DNA of 64,000 nucleotides from Gammaproteobacteria bacterium (GTDB lineage: Bacteria > Pseudomonadota > Gammaproteobacteria > VBWC01), in NCBI GenBank assembly GCA_006218035.1, contig VBWC01000017.1, positions 1,408 to 65,407 of the forward strand, in the 5' to 3' direction. Under the pieces are notes generated by a model. That model had not been told where the DNA came from. It saw only the letters and a program-made list of their open reading frames with translations, and did no database searches. Within the stretch, counting starts at the first letter, position 1. Every line of letters begins with the position of its first letter. Shown here in pieces: positions 8,003 to 48,726 of this stretch. The position numbers and the translations under genes were made by a program.

Positions 8003-8113
8003 TTAAGGAAGCTCTGATTAATCGTCTTATTGTCATTCCCGCGAAAGCGGGAATCCAGTAACGCACTGTTTTAAAAGCGCTGCCGGAATGACGACACATC
8101 AGAGGTTCCTTAA
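8003..8113. repeat. MITE/REP-like element, copy 1 (111 bp, terminal inverted repeats)
   Basis: TTAAGGAAGCTCTGAT...GTCATTCCCGCGAAAGCGGGAATCCAG...CCGGAATGACG...ATCAGAGGTTCCTTAA. The same core appears at about 19.5, 42.06 and 46.6 kb. Confidence 0.85.
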
Positions 8114-36368: not shown

Positions 36369-36453
36369 TTTCGTGGCACTACTGGCGACATGTCGAACGG
36401 AAGCGCTTCGAATTCCCGCCGTGCCTAAGTTCCGACGTACGACATTAACGAAG

Positions 36454-36814
36454 TGGCGCGCCCGAGACGGTGAGGCGAACGCTGTTCGCGAAGCGCCGCT
36501 TCGCGCGAGCCGAGCGCCTTGAGGCTGTGCCGAAAGGCCGGGAATCCGAGCGGGTGTGACATAAACAAAGTGAATGGCGCACCCGAGAGGGTGAGTCGGA
36601 ACCGAATGTCCATAAGACATTCGCAGTTCGGCGAACGCCCGAAGCGCAGCGTAGGGCCGGGAATCCGAACGGGCGCAGAATGAACGAAGTGAATGGCGCG
36701 CCCGAGAGGGCAAGGCGAGTGAAGTATGCGAAGCACCGCTTCGCGCGAGCCAAGCGCCTTGAGGCTGTGCCGAAAGGCCGGGAATCCGAGCGGGCGTGAC
36801 ATAAACAAAGTGAA
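36454..36814 (-). repeat. Tandem array of three ~120-bp units, each starting with a copy of the 3'-terminal 16 nt of tRNA-Arg
   Basis: Plus-strand TGGCGCGCCCGAGAGG or a close variant occurs at 36454, 36575, 36694 and, in the tRNA itself, 36815. That gives a period of 119-121 bp. Units 1 and 3 share about 85 nt that are nearly identical. Unit 2 has a different interior. Confidence 0.9.
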
Positions 36815-36891
36815 TGGCGCGCCCGAGAGGATTCGAACCTCTGACCATCGCCTTCGGAGGGCGGTACTCTATCCAGCTGAGCTACGGGCGC
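36815..36891 (-). tRNA. tRNA-Arg (anticodon CCG)
   Basis: The reverse complement folds as a cloverleaf: GCGCCCG-TA-GCTC-AGCTGGATA-GAGT-A-CCGCC-CTCCGAA-GGCGA-TGGTC-AGAGG-TTCGAAT-CCTCT-CGGGCGC-G-CCA. The anticodon loop CU-CCG-AA gives CCG. Confidence 0.9.
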
Positions 36892-42096: not shown

Positions 42097-42600
42097 TCAC
42101 GGCCCCGCCGTGTAGCGTATGTTGCACACGAGCAGGCACCGTTCACCCTCGGGTGTCTGCACCCGCACTTCGTCATCGACCGCCTTTTTAAACAGCGCCC
42201 TCGCCATCGGCGAGTCGATACTGATGAATCCCTGTTGGGCATCGGTCTCGTCGGCACCGACGATACGATAGGTGACCTCAGTGCCGCCTTCATCTTCCAG
42301 AGTGACCCATGCACCGAAGAAGATATGGCCCTGGTCTTTTGGCGTGTCGTGCACGACCGTGAGGTCAGGCAGCCGTTTCTGCAGGTACCGGATACGGCTG
42401 TCGATCTCGCGCAGTTCTTTTTTACGATAAATGTACTCGGCATTTTCGGAACGATCCCCTTCCGCCGCTGCCGCAGAAAGCGCCTGCACGACAGGCTGGC
42501 GGCGCTTCCACAGCGTCTTGAGCTCGTCATCCAGCACCGTGTAGCCGGCGGGCGTTATATAGGGCGATGACTTCGGTTGCGGTGGGCGATAGCGTGACAT
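42097..42600 (-). CDS. greB: Transcription elongation factor GreB
   Basis: [18 protein letters not shown]...[21 protein letters not shown] chose the start at internal Met 42600. Confidence 0.9.
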
Positions 42601-42925
42601 CGTTTGCTCTTTGCGAGCCTGGTCGGCTTTCTCGTTTTTGATATTGCGTATCACCCTGAGGACAGCAGCGCCGACGTTGGCAACAAAGCCATGCTCAATC
42701 AGGATTGGTAATTCTATGTCGATGATCCGCTAACAATCGAGCAATCCAAGCGCGCCTTCCAACTCACACTGGCTGGAGTGCAATCATTAACAAAGGAACG
42801 CAACCCCCCATAGGGACGTTCACGATTGAAGAATTCTCCAAAAGTCTCAGATCAGCCAAGAGCGGACGCTCAGGTTTAAAAAGTTAAGTGATTTTTCATC
42901 TTCTAAAGCCACCCCATGCGCTCTT

Positions 42926-44695
42926 TCATCGCATTTTCTCACTGATGCTCTTTAGCTTGGGCTCCGCCTCTTCCAAGACAGCTGATAATCTCTCAAGTGA
43001 GCCGCCAAACAGGCCGCCACCTAAAGGTGGCCATGATTTATCTGATTTCCCTATTGCATTTCTTGCTTGCATTGCCAACCAGTCAACGTCACGCTCTTTA
43101 TGTTTCCAGATAAATGCGCCATAAGGCGTCCAAATATCGCTCCGTCCTAATTCCTTCTCCGCATCGACGTGAAGAAGGCACCACAGATATTCGAAATCAT
43201 CGAATGCTCTCTCATACTGTGTATCATCCGGAATTAGAATTCTGAGCGGGTCTCGAAGCCGCCTGCTCAAATAATCACTTACTGGAGTGTATTTCTGCGC
43301 CATCCCTTCGATAAGTTTTCGAGCATGGTCTCGATCCATCACATTGTGCGTATAAATACGGACAGGTGCTACCACACTTTTATCGTCGTCATGTTTTATG
43401 AAACTAGGACGTGATGCAATTTCATGAAGTACTGAGTAGTTCTCCGAGACAACGGCTGCAATCCCTGCGGCATAGACAAGTAGCAAGGCGGGATAACGCC
43501 TAATATTTGTCCACACCTGGTATCCACCCGTAGATACCGCCTTACCTATGATCAAATGGAACGCATCAAAGAAGGACCTTGCCTGACTGGGGCGAGCGAA
43601 GAAAGAACCGTTTGCGAATATATGGATTAGTTTTTCGCAACTAGCCTCTAATCGTAGCATTAAGTCGCCAACAGAATGTTTATCTGGAGCGACTCCTTCC
43701 ATATGGGAGAAGGCAGTATCAATAGCCGACCCTGCCTGCCCGGCCTCTGCTACAAGAAAATCACGTAATCGGATTCTGTATTTTTCCTCACTTAAATATC
43801 TTTTCAATGTAACAACAGCTGCCTGAGTAGTAACCGGATGTGGTCGGTCAAATTCCTCTAACGCGCCCACTTTTTCAAGGAGTGTCGGAAAGAAACCGTC
43901 AGCGTCTTTTATTTTGATAAAATCTGCGCTGTGCAGGGATATAAGTTTCTTGGCTTGCCCTCCTGGATCAGAGCGGCCTGTCCAATACATTGGGTACCGC
44001 CGTGTTTTAGACCTCTCTAAAGCTTTGCGTAGAGCCAAATCGTAATCGGCTGACCAGCCACAACAGATTAAACCATACTCATCGAAGATCTGGTCAAGTA
44101 GTCGATTCATCGGTGGCGCATATTTCGAGAGCGCTTCAAGTGAGTTCTTGATTCTGTGATCTAGATAGTCGCCATGAACCTTGATAACGGTACACTTTGA
44201 ATGAGCAAGTGGTGGCGCGCCCTTAGCAGCATCTGGCGACGCGATAACGATTGGCGCAATACCCTCGCCTTCAAGCGCGTTCTCAATCAGTCTATCAAAA
44301 TTTGTTGTTACAATAACTCGGATATGACCCGTAGCTACTAATTGGGCAATCGCCTTATGGGCAACGGTTGGAAGCTTTTTCCCTTCCTCCCTTTCTTCGT
44401 CAGATGGTTCGAAATACTGCTTTAACAGCTGCTGTTGCGCAGCTGATGTCGGAGCTATAGTTGCCAATAGCTCCGAATAATCCGGTTCCTTTTTGAACTT
44501 TTCTAAATACCATCCCGCTTCGTCACCTTCGCAATCCTCTTCATGAAGATGCGCGAGCTTAGAGACGAGATTAAGTGTAATTTCCCAGCCGGTAGGGATG
44601 CTTGCGCTACGTGAAACACCTGAACCAAGTAATAATGCGTACGTACCCTTCTGGGCGTGAACGTTAAATGAAAGAGTGAGAAGCGGATCTATCAT
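42926..44695 (-). CDS. SIR2-family (SIR2_2-type) protein with an unassigned ~310-aa C-terminal domain
   Basis: LLLGSGVSRSASIPTGWE, VIVTTNFDRLIE and VIKVHGDY motifs in the N-terminal ~270 aa. The gene is AT-rich: a hand count gives 26/60 G+C at 43801-43860, against 40/60 at 20401-20460. Confidence 0.8.
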   Translation of the reverse strand: MIDPLLTLSFNVHAQKGTYALLLGSGVSRSASIPTGWEITLNLVSKLAHLHEEDCEGDEAGWYLEKFKKEPDYSELLATIAPTSAAQQQLLKQYFEPSDEEREEGKKLPTVAHKAIAQLVATGHIRVIVTTNFDRLIENALEGEGIAPIVIASPDAAKGAPPLAHSKCTVIKVHGDYLDHRIKNSLEALSKYAPPMNRLLDQIFDEYGLICCGWSADYDLALRKALERSKTRRYPMYWTGRSDPGGQAKKLISLHSADFIKIKDADGFFPTLLEKVGALEEFDRPHPVTTQAAVVTLKRYLSEEKYRIRLRDFLVAEAGQAGSAIDTAFSHMEGVAPDKHSVGDLMLRLEASCEKLIHIFANGSFFARPSQARSFFDAFHLIIGKAVSTGGYQVWTNIRRYPALLLVYAAGIAAVVSENYSVLHEIASRPSFIKHDDDKSVVAPVRIYTHNVMDRDHARKLIEGMAQKYTPVSDYLSRRLRDPLRILIPDDTQYERAFDDFEYLWCLLHVDAEKELGRSDIWTPYGAFIWKHKERDVDWLAMQARNAIGKSDKSWPPLGGGLFGGSLERLSAVLEEAEPKLKSISEKMR

Positions 44696-44986
44696 TATTT
44701 ATCTCTATAATAAATCGTATCGTTCCACATATAGCACTTACACTAACAAAAAACAGAAGCACGTGTAACGTCTCCTCTTAGGCTCGGATGCAGCCGTTCA
44801 CCGGAGCCGAGAGTGGAAGCTTGCGCGTCTCTTGGTAACCTTTGGTGACCGAGAGGCAACGGCTGCGGTCGCCGGGAAGAAAATGCCATTAAAACAGGGA
44901 CCAGGTTCCCGCCGCTACGTGAAACGGTCCGGCCCAGGTAAGACCTTTATTTCCCCCGCACACCGGTCCTTGTCATGCGGCGTGAC

Positions 44987-45204
44987 TTATTCCACCGTCA
45001 CCGACTTGGCGAGGTTGCGTGGCTGGTCGACGTCGGTGCCCTTGAAGACGGCGACGTGGTAGGCGAGCAGTTGCAGCGGGATGGTGAAGATGATCGGCGA
45101 GATTTCGTCTTCGGTCGGCGCGACGTTCAGCACCTGCACGCCCGGGCCAGAGCGCACATCGGTCCCTGAATCGGCGAACACGATCAACTGGCCGCCGCGC
45201 GCGC
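44987..45204 (-). pseudogene. Displaced duplicate of the glmS 3' end (last 72 codons plus stop)
   Basis: 218 bp that match 46894-47111 with 7 mismatches by hand alignment. It encodes ...[64 protein letters not shown]. Confidence 0.9.
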
Positions 45205-45210
45205 ATTCTC

Positions 45211-46557
45211 CTATTTCAACGCCTCCAGCTTTTGTCTGAGATTGGCGGTCACCGTAAATGAGAACGCCCTGCCAATGGTCGTTTTTTCCAGAAACCCCAG
45301 ATCGACCAATTTGAGAAGATCGGTTCTGGCTGTGTCATAGGTGACATTATGCGAACCGCGATGACTCTGGATGGTAAAAATCGAATCAGGGCTTTTCAGT
45401 GCTCGATTTAACAAAGCGATTTGCCGATAATTTAATGATCCCTGCAGATCTTTCCTGATCAAGTGTTCTACGGTCTTTATCTCGGTCGCTTTCTTTTCAA
45501 GATACGTTAACAGGTCTTTTATAGCACTGTTTATGACCTCCAGTTGGTGGACAATAAAGTAGGTAACGTCGTTGTCGTCCGTTTCTGTGTATAAATATGC
45601 CCTTGTATATTTTACCGGCGCAGACTTCAATATCCTCGAGATCGATATAAATTCCATGGTCCAATAATCCTGTTTCAACATGGCCCAATAGAAAAGTGCC
45701 CGCGCGGTTCGCCCATTACCATCCTCGAACGGGTGATCATATGCCAGAAGAAAGTGAAGAATAATTGCCCTGATAACCGGATGAAGGAAAAAAGCCGAAT
45801 CTGTTGCATTGGCGAATTCACATATGTTCTGAAGCCTCGCGGCCAGATCTTTTGCTTTCGGTGGTACATAGATGATGGTTGCGTCTCTTTCATCACCGAC
45901 ATAGATATCATCGGACGTACGCAATCGCCCTACGGCCTTTGGATTATCCAACGTGTCGACTGTTAATATTCTATGCAGCTCAAATACCAGTTCCGGTGAG
46001 AGATCCTCGGTATAGATGTCGTTAATGAACTCCATCGCATAATAATTGTTCACTATCATTCTTTCCGATCTGTTTCGCGGCTTGCGTTTTTGCCGTAGCA
46101 TTTCCTTCGCTACTTTTCGGGTCGTTGCAGCGCCTTCAAGCTGACTCGACGTGATTGACTCCTCGATTAACGAATTAATCAGGTAGGTATCCCTGGTATT
46201 GGGATTAGCCACCTGTTCGCTGGCCTTCAATTCTCCGCCGCCATGAATGTCGATTTCGTGCAACAAGCGACGGACTACGTCAGGTTCCGCATAAACGAAG
46301 GGCTTACCCTCCTTGTCCAGGTGCGGAATTGTTCTGTAGAGGGCTCTACGTGCGAATTTTATGGCGAGCCACCATTCTGCGTGGCTCAAATCCTGAGGCG
46401 GTTGTTTTAGATGCCGTAGTTTGTCCCAATGGTAGTAGTTTCCTCCCGGATCAGGCCTGATTCCAAGAGACAAGATATTGCCCAGGCGCGTCGGCGAATC
46501 GCCCGCGGCTTTATTGAGCAGGGAATGGATGTCGGGCGCGGTAACCGGGATTTTCAT
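45211..46557 (-). CDS. Fic family protein (Fic domain with N-terminal inhibitory-helix motif and C-terminal wHTH-like region)
   Basis: [13 protein letters not shown] active-site motif. SSQLEG matches the (S/T)xxxE(G/N) inhibitory motif. The gene is AT-rich (hand count 24/60 G+C at 45601-45660). Confidence 0.85.
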
Positions 46558-46566
46558 CGATAATAC

Positions 46567-46662
46567 TAAGGAAGCTCTGATTAATCATTTTGTTGTCATT
46601 CCCGCGAAAGCGGGAATCCAGTAACTCCGCCCGGAATGACGAATTAATCAGAGCTTCCCTAA
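46567..46662. repeat. MITE/REP-like element, copy 4 (near-perfect inverted repeat)
   Basis: TAAGGAAGCTCTGATTAATC...GTCATTCCCGCGAAAGCGGGAATCCAG...CCGGAATGACGAATTAATCAGAGCTTCCCTAA. Confidence 0.9.
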
Positions 46663-46703
46663 TTTGGATGCTATTGGCAGGAACATATCAAACCAAACAC
46701 CTT

Positions 46704-46832
46704 TTTACTACCAGCTTGGTAGAAATTGGTAGTAAATTGGCAGGTAACCTGTTCCGTTTACTACCAATCTGGTATAGATTGGTAGTAAATTGGTAGCTTG
46801 ATACAAGCTATCTTATTGATCTATTGATAGCT
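46704..46832. repeat. Iteron-like array of the 11-mer TTGGTAGTAAA in direct and inverted copies, plus an adjacent palindrome
   Basis: Exact TTGGTAGTAAA at 46726 and 46779. Exact inverted TTTACTACCAA at 46757. Variants at 46704, 46716, 46737, 46768 and 46790, mostly spaced 10-11 nt apart. The palindrome is AGCTATC-N13-GATAGCT at 46806-46832. Confidence 0.8.
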
Positions 46833-46893
46833 CGTCTGCGTGGGTAACTTGTACAACTCCGCTGATCCGCTGGTCCGGAAACGGGCGGGAGGC

Positions 46894-48726
46894 TTATTCC
46901 ACCGTCACCGATTTGGCGAGGTTGCGTGGCTGGTCGACATCGGTGCCTTTGAAGACGGCGACGTGGTAGGCGAGCAGTTGCAGCGGGATGGTGAAGATGA
47001 TCGGTGAGATTTCGTCTTCGGTCGGCGCGACGTTCAGCACCTGCACGCCCGGGCCAGAGCGTACATCGGTCGCCGAATCGGCGAACACGATCAACTGGCC
47101 GCCGCGCGCGCGGACTTCCTGCATGTTGGATTTGAGTTTTTCGAGCAGCGCATTGTCCGGCGCGACGGTGATCACCGGCATGTCGGCGTCGACCAGCGCG
47201 AGTGGCCCGTGCTTGAGTTCACCGGCCGGGTAGGCCTCGGCGTGGATATAGGAAATTTCCTTGAGCTTCAGCGCCCCTTCCATCGCAATCGGATAATGCG
47301 CGCCGCGACCCAGAAACAGCGCGTGGTGCTTGTCGGCGAACTGCTGCGCAAGTTCGGCGATTTCCCCATCGAGTTGCAGCGCCTCGTCGATCTTGCGCGG
47401 CAGGCTTTCGAGCTGCTTGACGAGCGATGCCTCGATTTCTTCGGTAATACGATGACGCCGGCCGAGCACGATCACCAGCATCATCAGCGCCACAAGCTGC
47501 GTCGTGAATGCCTTGGTCGATGCGACGCCGATCTCCGGGCCCGCGCGCGTCATCAACACCACGTCGGACTCGCGTACCAGCGAACTCTCCGGCGCGTTGC
47601 AGATCGCCAGCGAATGGCCGATGCCGCGGCGCTTGGCGTCGCGCAGCGCGGCGAGCGTATCGGCGGTCTCGCCGGACTGCGAGATCGTTACGAACAGGCT
47701 GCGCGGCTGCAACACCGGATGCCGGTAACGGAACTCGCTGGCGACCTCGACATTGCATGGAATGCCGGCGAGCGCCTCGAACCAGTATTTGGCGACGAGG
47801 CCGGCGTGGTAGCTGGTACCGCAGGCGATGATCTGCACACGCTTGACCGCGTCAAACACTTCCGTGGCCAGCGGCCCGAACGCTCCTTCGAGCACGCGGT
47901 GACCGCTGATGCGGCCCTCAAGTGTCTGCGCGACGGCGCGCGCCTGCTCGAATATTTCCTTGGCCATGTAGTGGCGGTATTCGCCACGCTCGACCGAATC
48001 CGCCGTCAACTCGCTGAGCTTTATCGGCCGGGTGACCGCGTTGCCTGCGGCGTCATAGATGTCCAGCGTGTCCTTGGTGATGTCCGCAACGTCGCCTTCT
48101 TCGAGAAAGATAAAGCGCTGTGTCACCGGCAGCAGCGCCGCGACATCGGAGGCGATAAAGTATTCGCCAATACCGATACCGACCACCAGCGGGCTGCCGC
48201 GCCGTGTTGCGATCAGACGCCCCGGTTCCTTGGTGCTGACCACGCCCAGCGCATAGGCCCCTTCGAAATCACCGACCGAGGATTTGACGGCGTCGAGCAG
48301 CGTCGCCCCTTTGACGTGATAATCGTAAACCTGATGGGCGACAACCTCGGTATCGGTTTCGGAGGTGAATTCGTAGCCGGCCGTTTTCTGCTGCGCGCGC
48401 AGCGCCTCGTGATTTTCGATGATGCCGTTGTGCACCACGGCGACCGTATGACGGCAGATATGCGGATGCGCATTTTTTTCGGTGGGTTTGCCATGCGTCG
48501 CCCAGCGGGTATGGGCGATACCGGCGTGCCCGTGCAGTGGCTTGTGCCGGATGTTGTTTTCGAGTTCCACCACCTTGCCGACCACGCGCGCACGGGTCAG
48601 CTCGGCGGCGTCGTTCATGACGACCAGCCCGGCAGAGTCATAGCCGCGATATTCCAGCCGCTTCAGTCCTTCGATCAGGATCGGGACCAGATCGCGGGAG
48701 GCCGCGCCGCCAACAATGCCGCACAT
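46894..48726 (-). CDS. glmS: Glutamine--fructose-6-phosphate aminotransferase
   Basis: MCGIVG N-terminus, 610 aa, C-terminus ...[13 protein letters not shown]. Confidence 0.97.

Follow-up and report, generated by a model that had tools for sequence, protein, structure and literature searches.

The 3′-end of glmS is among the best-known landing sites in bacterial chromosomes, for Tn7-type insertion after the gene and not for replacement of the gene's own end. Its sequence is recognised by Tn7-type TnsD (attTn7), and Tn7, which bears tnsABCD and end repeats, inserts ∼23–25 bp past the glmS stop codon with a 5-bp duplication. With e14 and phage 21 the target is the end of icd itself: the incoming DNA completes the gene, and the displaced pseudo-3′-end is left behind as a direct repeat. 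The minimal mobile elements of Neisseria, in turn, are transferred by host recombination from relatives (PMC3787668). The locus described here lies in 64,000 nt of a gammaproteobacterial contig (VBWC01000017.1, positions 1,408–65,407; GenBank assembly GCA_006218035.1), a stretch that in its full length is called the window in what follows. In it, the last 218 bp of glmS occur twice, around a 1,689-bp segment whose single cargo gene is fic. The replacement of a gene end, with the old end displaced as a fragment, is an already known kind of footprint. What is unusual is that the target lies inside glmS and not after it, as is the case for Tn7, that the insert is minimal and recombinase-free, that the donor was close, and that the architecture recurs with other cargo and at another gene.

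Two copies of the glmS 3′-end

Alignment of the region gave a direct repeat of 218–219 bp (44986/7–45204, copy A; 46893/4–47111, copy B) with 96.8% identity, seven mismatches and no gaps, which confirms the extent and the number of mismatches reported in an earlier note on this DNA. Copy B (46894–47111, minus strand) consists of the final 71 codons of the working glmS gene and its stop codon. Copy A (44987–45204, minus strand) lies 1,907 bp from copy B, downstream in the direction of glmS transcription; it is a displaced 3′ fragment of glmS, a pseudogene whose frame is still open (66 or 64 aa, depending on the gene-finder call). Similarity is lost sharply at both edges of the repeat, 1 nt beyond the TAA stop codon on one side and at GCGCGCGC on the other, the latter corresponding to codons R-A-R-G-G-Q, 218 bp before the end of glmS. 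The earlier note had counted 72 sense codons, but the repeat consists of 2 nt, 71 sense codons and the stop. It had also taken five mismatches to be synonymous and two to fall in one codon (SGTD versus SATD); there are in fact six third-position synonymous differences and a single non-synonymous one, and the pair of close mismatches is spread over two neighbouring codons (TCA/TCG, Ser, followed by GGG/GCG). The sole amino-acid difference is carried by copy A, in which GGG (Gly) stands where copy B has GCG (Ala).

The duplication is real. The order of the parts and all seven differences recur in L081, a MEGAHIT-type contig of separate origin (a different dataset), which is 100% identical to the window over 21 kb bar a 40-bp indel in a small transposable element; four more long contigs are reported to represent the same place. 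The junction between fic and the displaced fragment (glmS′) is carried by a separate Logan contig (L082), and two Logan contigs join bases specific to copy A to the side on which a SIR2 gene lies. The earlier note had named an assembly artefact as what could undo its claim, and two strains with different DNA after glmS might have been joined through their shared glmS end: the source is metagenomic, and contigs assembled with short k-mers break inside the repeat, as do short Logan contigs from two runs. Against this stand the seven differences, found in the same phase in the independent long contig, the four further contigs reported for the same place, and the junction present in L082. In addition, neighbouring mismatches are separated by no more than 57 nt; with k = 139, the copies should therefore have no k-mer in common and be fully phased. 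The chance that the structure is an artefact is therefore put at next to nothing.

When copies A and B were compared by the Nei–Gojobori method, six synonymous differences were recorded over 56 sites and one non-synonymous difference over 157 sites, giving a dN/dS of 0.055. Neutral decay of a fragment after a duplication in place would be expected to leave ∼9 non-synonymous differences where one was seen (Poisson P ∼ 1 × 10–3); a more conservative conditional binomial test of the same model gave P = 0.02. The changes were polarised using the two closest relatives (L088 and L089) as outgroups. Four derived changes were assigned to copy B, all of them synonymous and G/C-to-A/T, and two to copy A, including the only amino-acid change, while one site was ambiguous; most of the polarised changes thus fall on the copy under selection (P ∼ 0.03–0.07). 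These results support the idea, already put forward in the earlier note, that the copies are two alleles that diverged under purifying selection while both were functional. They also support the view that one of them is a replacement 3′-end brought in with foreign DNA. The two copies are ∼97% identical to each other, and each is ∼85–86% identical to its closest database relatives over the segment; since the copies are closest to each other, the donor was a very close relative. As to which copy is the donor's, we infer that copy B is probably the incoming allele, at least in its 3′ half. The pattern fits an incoming copy B under selection and a resident copy A that is starting to decay, and a crossover inside the repeat fits equally well. 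The order of the sites (A-derived at 37 and 39, B-derived at 106–199) was considered as a sign of such a crossover but was uninformative (chance P ∼ 0.13–0.4).

A duplication that arose locally, or as a long target duplication when fic was inserted, followed by independent mutation of the two copies, would explain their 96.8% identity, their direct orientation and the fact that the fragment has the sole amino-acid change. It is nevertheless very improbable given the ratio of synonymous to non-synonymous differences (P ∼ 1 × 10–3, or 0.02 in the conditional test) and the location of most polarised changes on the selected copy. Moreover, two further loci described below (L050 and L225) show the same synonymous excess at far higher divergence, and the model of decay in place is rejected in all three cases. 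To our knowledge, no insertion mechanism makes target duplications of 200–500 bp.

The DNA beyond the glmS stop codon varies among relatives. The slot holds intI in L088, a methyltransferase gene followed by pfkB in L089, and fic plus the SIR2 gene in the window; the flanks that follow the two stop codons of the window are unrelated to one another and to those of L088 and L089. Similarity between copies A and B ends at the glmS stop codon, which is also where the relatives become mutually unrelated, and the stop codon can thus be taken as the boundary of a slot with variable content. The cargo is foreign: the GC content, ∼62% in host genes, falls to 42–50% in 45200–46800 and is low again in 42600–44800. 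All the relatives are metagenomic, and the nearest differently arranged genome has 85% DNA identity over the segment. No second strain with a slot containing fic and the SIR2 gene was retrieved, nor was the same cassette found at the same site in other lineages, and no fic or SIR2 gene at least 90% identical is on record besides the window's own sequences. A GlmS variant with ∼97% amino-acid identity to that of the window (P0242) was seen on a 153,882-bp contig in public assemblies; that locus could hold the empty site or different cargo.

Origin of the second glmS end

Following the orientation of glmS, the 1,689 bp between the copies comprise a 68-bp spacer, a conserved box, two 40-nt units, a 96-bp miniature inverted-repeat transposable element (MITE), fic and 6 nt. 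The earlier description of 45205–46893 as containing only fic, a MITE and a repeat array, with no integrase, was thus borne out. The spacer (46826–46893, minus strand), which runs from the glmS stop codon to the conserved fic unit, has a host-like GC content of 61% and bears no relation to the sequence that flanks copy A or to those that flank glmS in the relatives. At the other end, the fic stop codon (45211–45213) is separated from copy A by the 6 nt reported before (45205–45210, minus strand; GAGAAT). A locus with a fic homologue (L083) is similar to the window up to this 6-nt junction. Elsewhere the fic unit keeps a hairpin at its 3′ side, which is absent from the window, where the unit is cut 6 nt past the stop codon. 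The 3′ flank of fic reads AATAATGCGCACGGGG in L227 and GAGAATGCGCGCGCGG in the window, and their likeness over GCGCnCG suggests a join at microhomology; a short microhomology at the junction of fic and copy A is therefore possible. The fic unit has no conserved ends and occurs alone in at least six unrelated contexts; its homologues (70–83% identity) are all at other loci and, outside the window, are never linked to glmS.

The fetched loci, ∼3 Mb in total, yielded three cases of the architecture including that of the window. The second (L050, 11692–12880) is in contig NVVW01000011.1 of the metagenome-assembled genome of Methylophaga sp. NORP53, and is the only one with a second glmS end among the 80 genome loci fetched with GlmS. 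Here, glmS is followed after 6 nt by a gene for a 99-aa nucleotidyltransferase, a gene for a 163-aa protein and a glmS fragment of 62–69 codons. The 163-aa protein has no Pfam hit, but on reading its sequence RNQMIH was recognised as an Rx4H motif of the HEPN type; the stop codon of this last cargo gene overlaps the GTG that opens the open reading frame (ORF) of the fragment. The copies in L050 (a repeat of ∼190 bp) are 82–85% identical, with dS 0.72 and dN/dS 0.15, and are each other's closest relatives. The third case (L225, 1453–1970 and 3738–4366 of JGI Ga0316205_10005829) was one more bracketed case among ∼9 independent fic contexts, and its fic unit is 80% identical to that of the window. 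Its repeats, ∼520 bp long, take in 240 bp at the 3′-end of a gene for an ABC-F ATPase and, past the stop codon, ∼270 bp of intergenic sequence. They are 87% identical in the coding and 78% in the non-coding part (dN/dS 0.19), and the fragment has a frameshift and indels.

Repeats flanking fic in two other loci were rejected as duplications of a gene end: those of L083 belong to a dispersed 193-bp repeat family, and those of L230 are an IS110 insertion and an older IS110 remnant. The IS110-family element of L230 (2299–3460) lies right after the fic homologue in this one of three otherwise 99.9% identical contigs (L229–231); all three have a 350-bp remnant of the 5′-end of the same insertion sequence upstream of fic.

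The fragment left in copy A might be imagined to be a working part of the cassette, such as a small protein or RNA made from the DNA behind the toxin gene, much like the small antitoxin AS1, for which a position downstream of E. coli Sofic is the precedent (PMC12249575). The 66-aa open frame directly after fic, the GTG of the L050 fragment that overlaps the preceding stop codon (GTGA) and the low dN/dS of that L050 fragment would agree with this. However, the L225 fragment has a frameshift and indels, no ribosome-binding site was seen on reading the sequence before the fragment of the window, no downstream gene is conserved at other fic homologues, and a 66-aa tail of a SIS domain would be unlikely to fold alone. 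Such a function is accordingly thought a very long shot.

The reading we favour, with a rough probability of 0.45, is that general recombination of the host, acting on glmS homology, inserted DNA from a close relative. A stretch of closely related chromosome comprising at least the last 218 bp of glmS, the 68-bp spacer and the fic unit would have recombined into the resident glmS in a single acquisition event. The incoming end would then complete the working gene, and the resident end would be pushed 1.9 kb downstream as a dead fragment, still beside its own downstream DNA and the SIR2 gene. Since a double crossover would replace the resident end instead of duplicating it, either a single exchange with a circle or a one-sided event would be needed. 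In the first, a circular copy would be inserted by one crossover (Campbell-type); the second would combine one homologous crossover in glmS with an illegitimate join at the short GC-rich microhomology right after fic. In homology-facilitated illegitimate recombination, as outlined in one report (PMC3240628), one incoming end joins homologously and the other illegitimately. No dedicated integrase would be required. The MITE landed later in the 5′ leader of fic, and a RecA-mediated pop-out between the 218-bp repeats would delete fic and leave one chimeric, intact glmS. This mechanism, including the acting enzyme and any circular intermediate, is argued from anatomy and three examples.

Host recombination is favoured because all three cases involve a donor that was closely related, because the repeats differ in length (218, ∼190 and ∼520 bp), and because that of L225 runs well into non-coding DNA, as would be expected for a piece of a relative's chromosome and not for a minimal attachment site. 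It is also favoured because the 68-bp spacer, with its host-like GC content, resembles the chromosomal DNA of a relative, and because the fic unit lacks conserved ends, is not otherwise tied to glmS, and is cut 6 nt past its stop codon where its relatives keep a hairpin, at a junction that resembles the L227 flank. The two-allele pattern and the loss of similarity at the boundary of the variable slot also speak for it. Finally, the window contains neither a recombinase nor a remnant of one, and a search of >200 glmS loci and 5,425 E. coli genomes yielded no counterpart with an integrase.

Several observations weigh on the other side. The longest identical run shared by the L050 copies is ≤18 nt, so a RecA-mediated crossover would be very inefficient there. 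The L050 fragment starts only 12–27 nt downstream of the point at which the window fragment starts, and in both loci the cargo ORF ends ≤6 nt before the fragment; a coinciding boundary and flush cargo look designed, and fit a site-specific system. The likeness of the junction to L227 amounts to 8/10 GC-rich bases and could be due to chance. Further, recombination by the host has to assume a circular intermediate, or else an illegitimate join made inside the homologous region, and exact-protein look-ups for GlmS and SIR2, which could have revealed an empty site or the donor's arrangement, returned the same arrangement only.

These points lead to the main alternative, which we consider possible but on balance unlikely: a site-specific element of the e14/icd kind, either non-autonomous or decayed, and now resembling a cis-mobilisable element (CIME). 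A tyrosine-recombinase element with its attachment site at the RARGGQ codons of glmS would have brought its own glmS end, and its integrase would have been lost by a deletion reaching the attachment site, or would act in trans from elsewhere. This would account for a regenerated gene with a displaced 3′ fragment, for low-GC DNA enclosed by direct repeats whose similarity is lost at the stop codon, and for a replacement allele that evolved under selection. It would also suit the independent L050 case, with other cargo at nearly the same glmS position and an allele so diverged (dS 0.72) that a recombinase would tolerate it better than RecA, and the cargo lying flush with the fragment in both loci. 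There is precedent in e14, which at icd likewise leaves a pseudo-icd′ of 163 bp (PMC6379469), and in elements that keep attL and attR without integration genes, CIMEs being a described class (PMC5704250). On the other hand, none of the three cases contains an integrase and the window contains no remnant of one; none of the collections searched yielded a relative with both an integrase and a duplicated glmS end; and the tyrosine recombinases adjacent to glmS are integron integrases or of phage type, with no glmS′ within 10 kb. The L225 repeat, moreover, extends ∼270 bp into intergenic DNA, the donor of the incoming allele was closely related, and in no other context is the fic unit linked to glmS.

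The searches behind these statements can be summarised as follows. No tyrosine-recombinase-like ORF was found in the window, in which tblastn with IntI of a neighbouring lineage gave noise, and an iterated recombinase profile detected no tyrosine recombinase in the inserts of L050 and L225. An integrase-bearing element with a second glmS end was absent from 80 genome loci, 80 metagenome loci (found with the 71-aa GlmS C-terminus), 46 IMG/VR glmS loci and 5,425 E. coli genomes; in the IMG/VR and metagenome sets no duplicated glmS end of any kind was seen. The complete E. coli genomes gave 5,428 places in 5,425 genomes, so no glmS-end duplication is present in them. Of the footprint of element integration proposed in the earlier note, therefore, the arrival of a replacement 3′-end with foreign DNA holds, while the larger integrase-bearing element that relatives might have carried at the same glmS position was searched for and not found in these collections. 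In all the fetched loci, the only tyrosine recombinases beside glmS were integron integrases (L088, L027, L162 and L157) or phage-type enzymes, none with a glmS′ copy within 10 kb.

Some candidates were rejected in the process. A recombinase in L018 was considered as associated with a replaced glmS end, but the last 216 bp of that gene are not unusually diverged. Phage matches to the glmS end, as a potential attP, proved to be full-length host glmS in unverified records (H18 and H19 were checked), and plasmid matches were full glmS or nodM genes. The possibility of an integron cassette with an attC site was also discarded: the 218-bp segment (both strands) and its flanks fold like shuffled sequences (z –0.5 to +0.5), and the window contains no intI.

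Some other observations on glmS were made along the way. Integron integrase genes lie directly downstream of glmS, in convergent orientation, in four gammaproteobacterial lineages including the closest relative of the window (L088, 11882–12859; L027, 11701–12732; L162, 1140–2171; L157, 2250–3350); that of L088 scored 476 bits with TIGR02249, against a cut-off of 265. An IMG/VR contig (UViG_3300002059_000031; L129, 1300–1380) carries a low-GC glmS that lacks almost exactly the segment duplicated in the window, through an internal deletion, out of frame, that starts near the EVK(AR) codons. In E. coli, the last 221 bp of glmS are 90–95% identical to those of K-12 in 502 of 5,426 records. Identity is typically higher for E. 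coli core genes, and the lower value may point to recombination being frequent at the border of the attTn7 slot.

A more far-reaching idea, which we regard as doubtful, is that recombinase-free toxin or defence cassettes spread with the 3′-end of a core gene as a portable homology arm, entering as a circle and popping out as a circle. Host recombination would place the circle beside the resident gene, yielding an intact gene and a displaced fragment, and the direct repeats so formed would permit the later exit. The three cases (glmS with fic, glmS with the nucleotidyltransferase and HEPN-like genes, and the ABC-F gene with fic) would be independent instances of it.

The fic unit and its neighbourhood

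The fic gene (45211–46557, minus strand) encodes a 448-aa protein which, by homology, is a class II Fic AMP-transferase of the SoFic kind. It matched the Pfam Fic family (2.1e-17) and the PADLOC SoFic model (2.5e-44), and structures of FICD and SoFic (3eqx/3zcn) among PDB entries with E values from ∼5e-12 to 8e-7, its C-terminal part aligning with the C-terminal region of SoFic. Both the class II inhibitory motif (S137-x3-E141-G142) and the active-site Fic motif HxFx(D/E)GNGRxxR (residues 275–286, with H275) are invariant in 30 homologues. The NCBIfam SoFic equivalog model gave 53 bits; as this is far under the cut-off of 550, the protein must be a distant member of the SoFic kind. It is predicted from these features to be an auto-inhibited AMP-transferase of the SoFic type and, by analogy with SoFic, is probably an abortive-infection toxin, SoFic having been reported as such (PMC12249575). 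No AS1-like partner gene is conserved beside the fic homologues in the fetched fic loci, and relatives of fic are essentially absent from IMG/VR viral contigs.

The control region upstream of fic (46704–46825, minus strand) consists of the conserved box ATAGATCAATAAGATAG (46808–46824) and two 40-nt units (46704–46743 and 46757–46796), each with ACTACCAAT direct repeats and a TACCAxxTGGTA palindrome which has no other occurrence in the window. The same box and palindromic arrays precede fic homologues (69–83% identity) in L083, L085, L086/087, L223/224, L225, L227 and L229–231, each of these loci in a different genomic neighbourhood. Since the array travels with fic homologues in other genomes, it is the control region of fic and not a replication origin; the array at 46704–46796, which the earlier note had called iteron-like, is thus fic's own upstream region. 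The palindromic array would be the fic operator, and the C-terminal DNA-binding domain of Fic, by analogy, probably binds it and brings about auto-repression.

The MITE (46567–46662; 96 bp, with 19-nt terminal inverted repeats and a TA/TTA target duplication) sits in the third half-site of the operator, 14 nt upstream of the fic ATG. Its removal in silico, together with one copy of the TA, restored the consensus of this half-site as present in L083, L086 and L227, and the MITE is therefore a later, secondary insertion. The MITE family is characterised by an internal ATTCCCGCGAAAGCGGGAAT palindrome and by terminal inverted repeats of the form TA(A/G)GGAAGCTCTGATTAAT. Both of these repeats are present in the member that lies in the fic leader; further copies at 8004–8082 and 42031–∼42100 have one each (at 8007 and 42035, respectively). 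The version present in L081 is 40 bp longer than that of the window.

The intact glmS gene (46894–48726, minus strand; taken from the ORF list) encodes 610 aa with two SIS domains and GATase_6/7 matches in Pfam, and is the last gene of an atpD-atpC-glmU-glmS block on the minus strand. Its product shows 95% amino-acid identity to that of the nearest relative (P0121, in L088) and 82% to that of L089. Downstream of copy A there are 291 nt (44696–44986, minus strand; 57% GC over the first 247 nt) which are taken to be the resident downstream region of glmS; an Rfam scan of 40–50 kb (E ≤ 1) gave no RNA family match at all, and no unusual fold was seen in these 291 nt. Then follows, before greB, the gene for a 589-aa SIR2_2 protein (42926–44695, minus strand; Pfam SIR2_2, 3.8e-11), which is matched end to end by the PADLOC model PDC-S65 (1.7e-200). 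With ∼46% GC, this gene lies directly after the copy A fragment, outside the repeat but still within the variable slot that separates glmS from greB; its exact sequence is on record only for the population of the window. It is a candidate defence gene of the PDC-S65 type, and fic and the SIR2_2 gene would together form a two-gene islet of the defence type in the glmS–greB slot. Elsewhere in the window, a 141-bp direct repeat (36450–36590 and 36691–36830; 90% identical, 241 bp from start to start) came to light as a by-product of the comparison with L081.

Comparison with described systems

The Fic protein of the window is like SoFic in its PADLOC match, in its class II inhibitory and active-site motifs and in the alignment of its C-terminus to SoFic structures. 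It differs from the SoFic proteins of Shewanella and E. coli in being distant from them, in having ∼75 extra N-terminal residues and in the lack of an AS1-like gene, and its activity is a prediction.

A close parallel to the locus as a whole is e14 or phage 21 at icd. As in the window, the incoming DNA regenerates the gene and a 3′ fragment is displaced, so that both ends of the foreign DNA show the gene end, and the differences between the two copies are few and mostly conservative. The displaced ends are also comparable in size (163 bp for icd′, PMC6379469; 218 bp in the window). But e14 is a prophage with its own integrase and excisionase, whereas the window has a 1.7-kb insert with a single cargo gene, no recombinase and no autonomous relative that could be found, and the target is glmS; the bracketed segment encodes Fic and no integrase. 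As to a possible shared attachment point, one further glmS case (L050) has its boundary 12–27 nt away, and no such case was found in ∼200 other glmS loci or the 5,425 E. coli genomes.

The module may resemble CIMEs in that it has end repeats, as putative attachment sites, and no mobility genes. CIMEs are recognised by related functional integrative and conjugative or integrative and mobilisable elements (ICEs/IMEs) with an identical attachment site that occur in the same taxa, and none was found for this position of glmS in the collections searched. The minimal mobile elements of Neisseria (PMC3787668) resemble the window in having variable content between conserved genes and no mobility genes, and close relatives of the window do indeed have different content between the same conserved flanks, with no mobility genes, as at a hotspot. 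They differ in that their double crossover leaves no duplication, while in the window one flank is duplicated.

If the architecture turned out to be common, it would help explain how single defence or toxin genes without mobility genes move among the hotspots flanked by core genes that occur in many species, and it would provide a signature that can be searched for: a displaced fragment of a gene end with a low dN/dS relative to the intact gene. The direct repeats also predict that fic is unstable and excisable.

The resemblance to Tn7-like elements lies in the use of the conserved glmS 3′-end as a landmark and in the cargo, often of defence genes, placed just downstream. Beyond this the two part ways, as 218 bp of coding sequence are duplicated in the window; no tns-like ORFs, repeated end motif or flank similarity to plasmid-borne Tn7 was found there. 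A resemblance to a Tn7 end 25 nt past the stop codon of the fragment (TGTGCGGGGGAAATAAAGG) was dropped since there is no second or inverted copy of it and no BLAST match. Tn7-like elements were seen at another glmS: in Ca. Methylobacter oryzae KRF1 (L004, 11850–18300), two of them in tandem, with TnsA-like and TnsB-like ORFs and 70–73% DNA identity to each other, begin ∼20 bp after the stop codon. In the window, the direct repeats give the genome two copies of the sequence recognised by TnsD and hence a predicted second Tn7 attachment sequence. Compared with Tn7, the locus would represent a different route by which a gene of the defence type can reach glmS, one that leaves a datable and readable scar.

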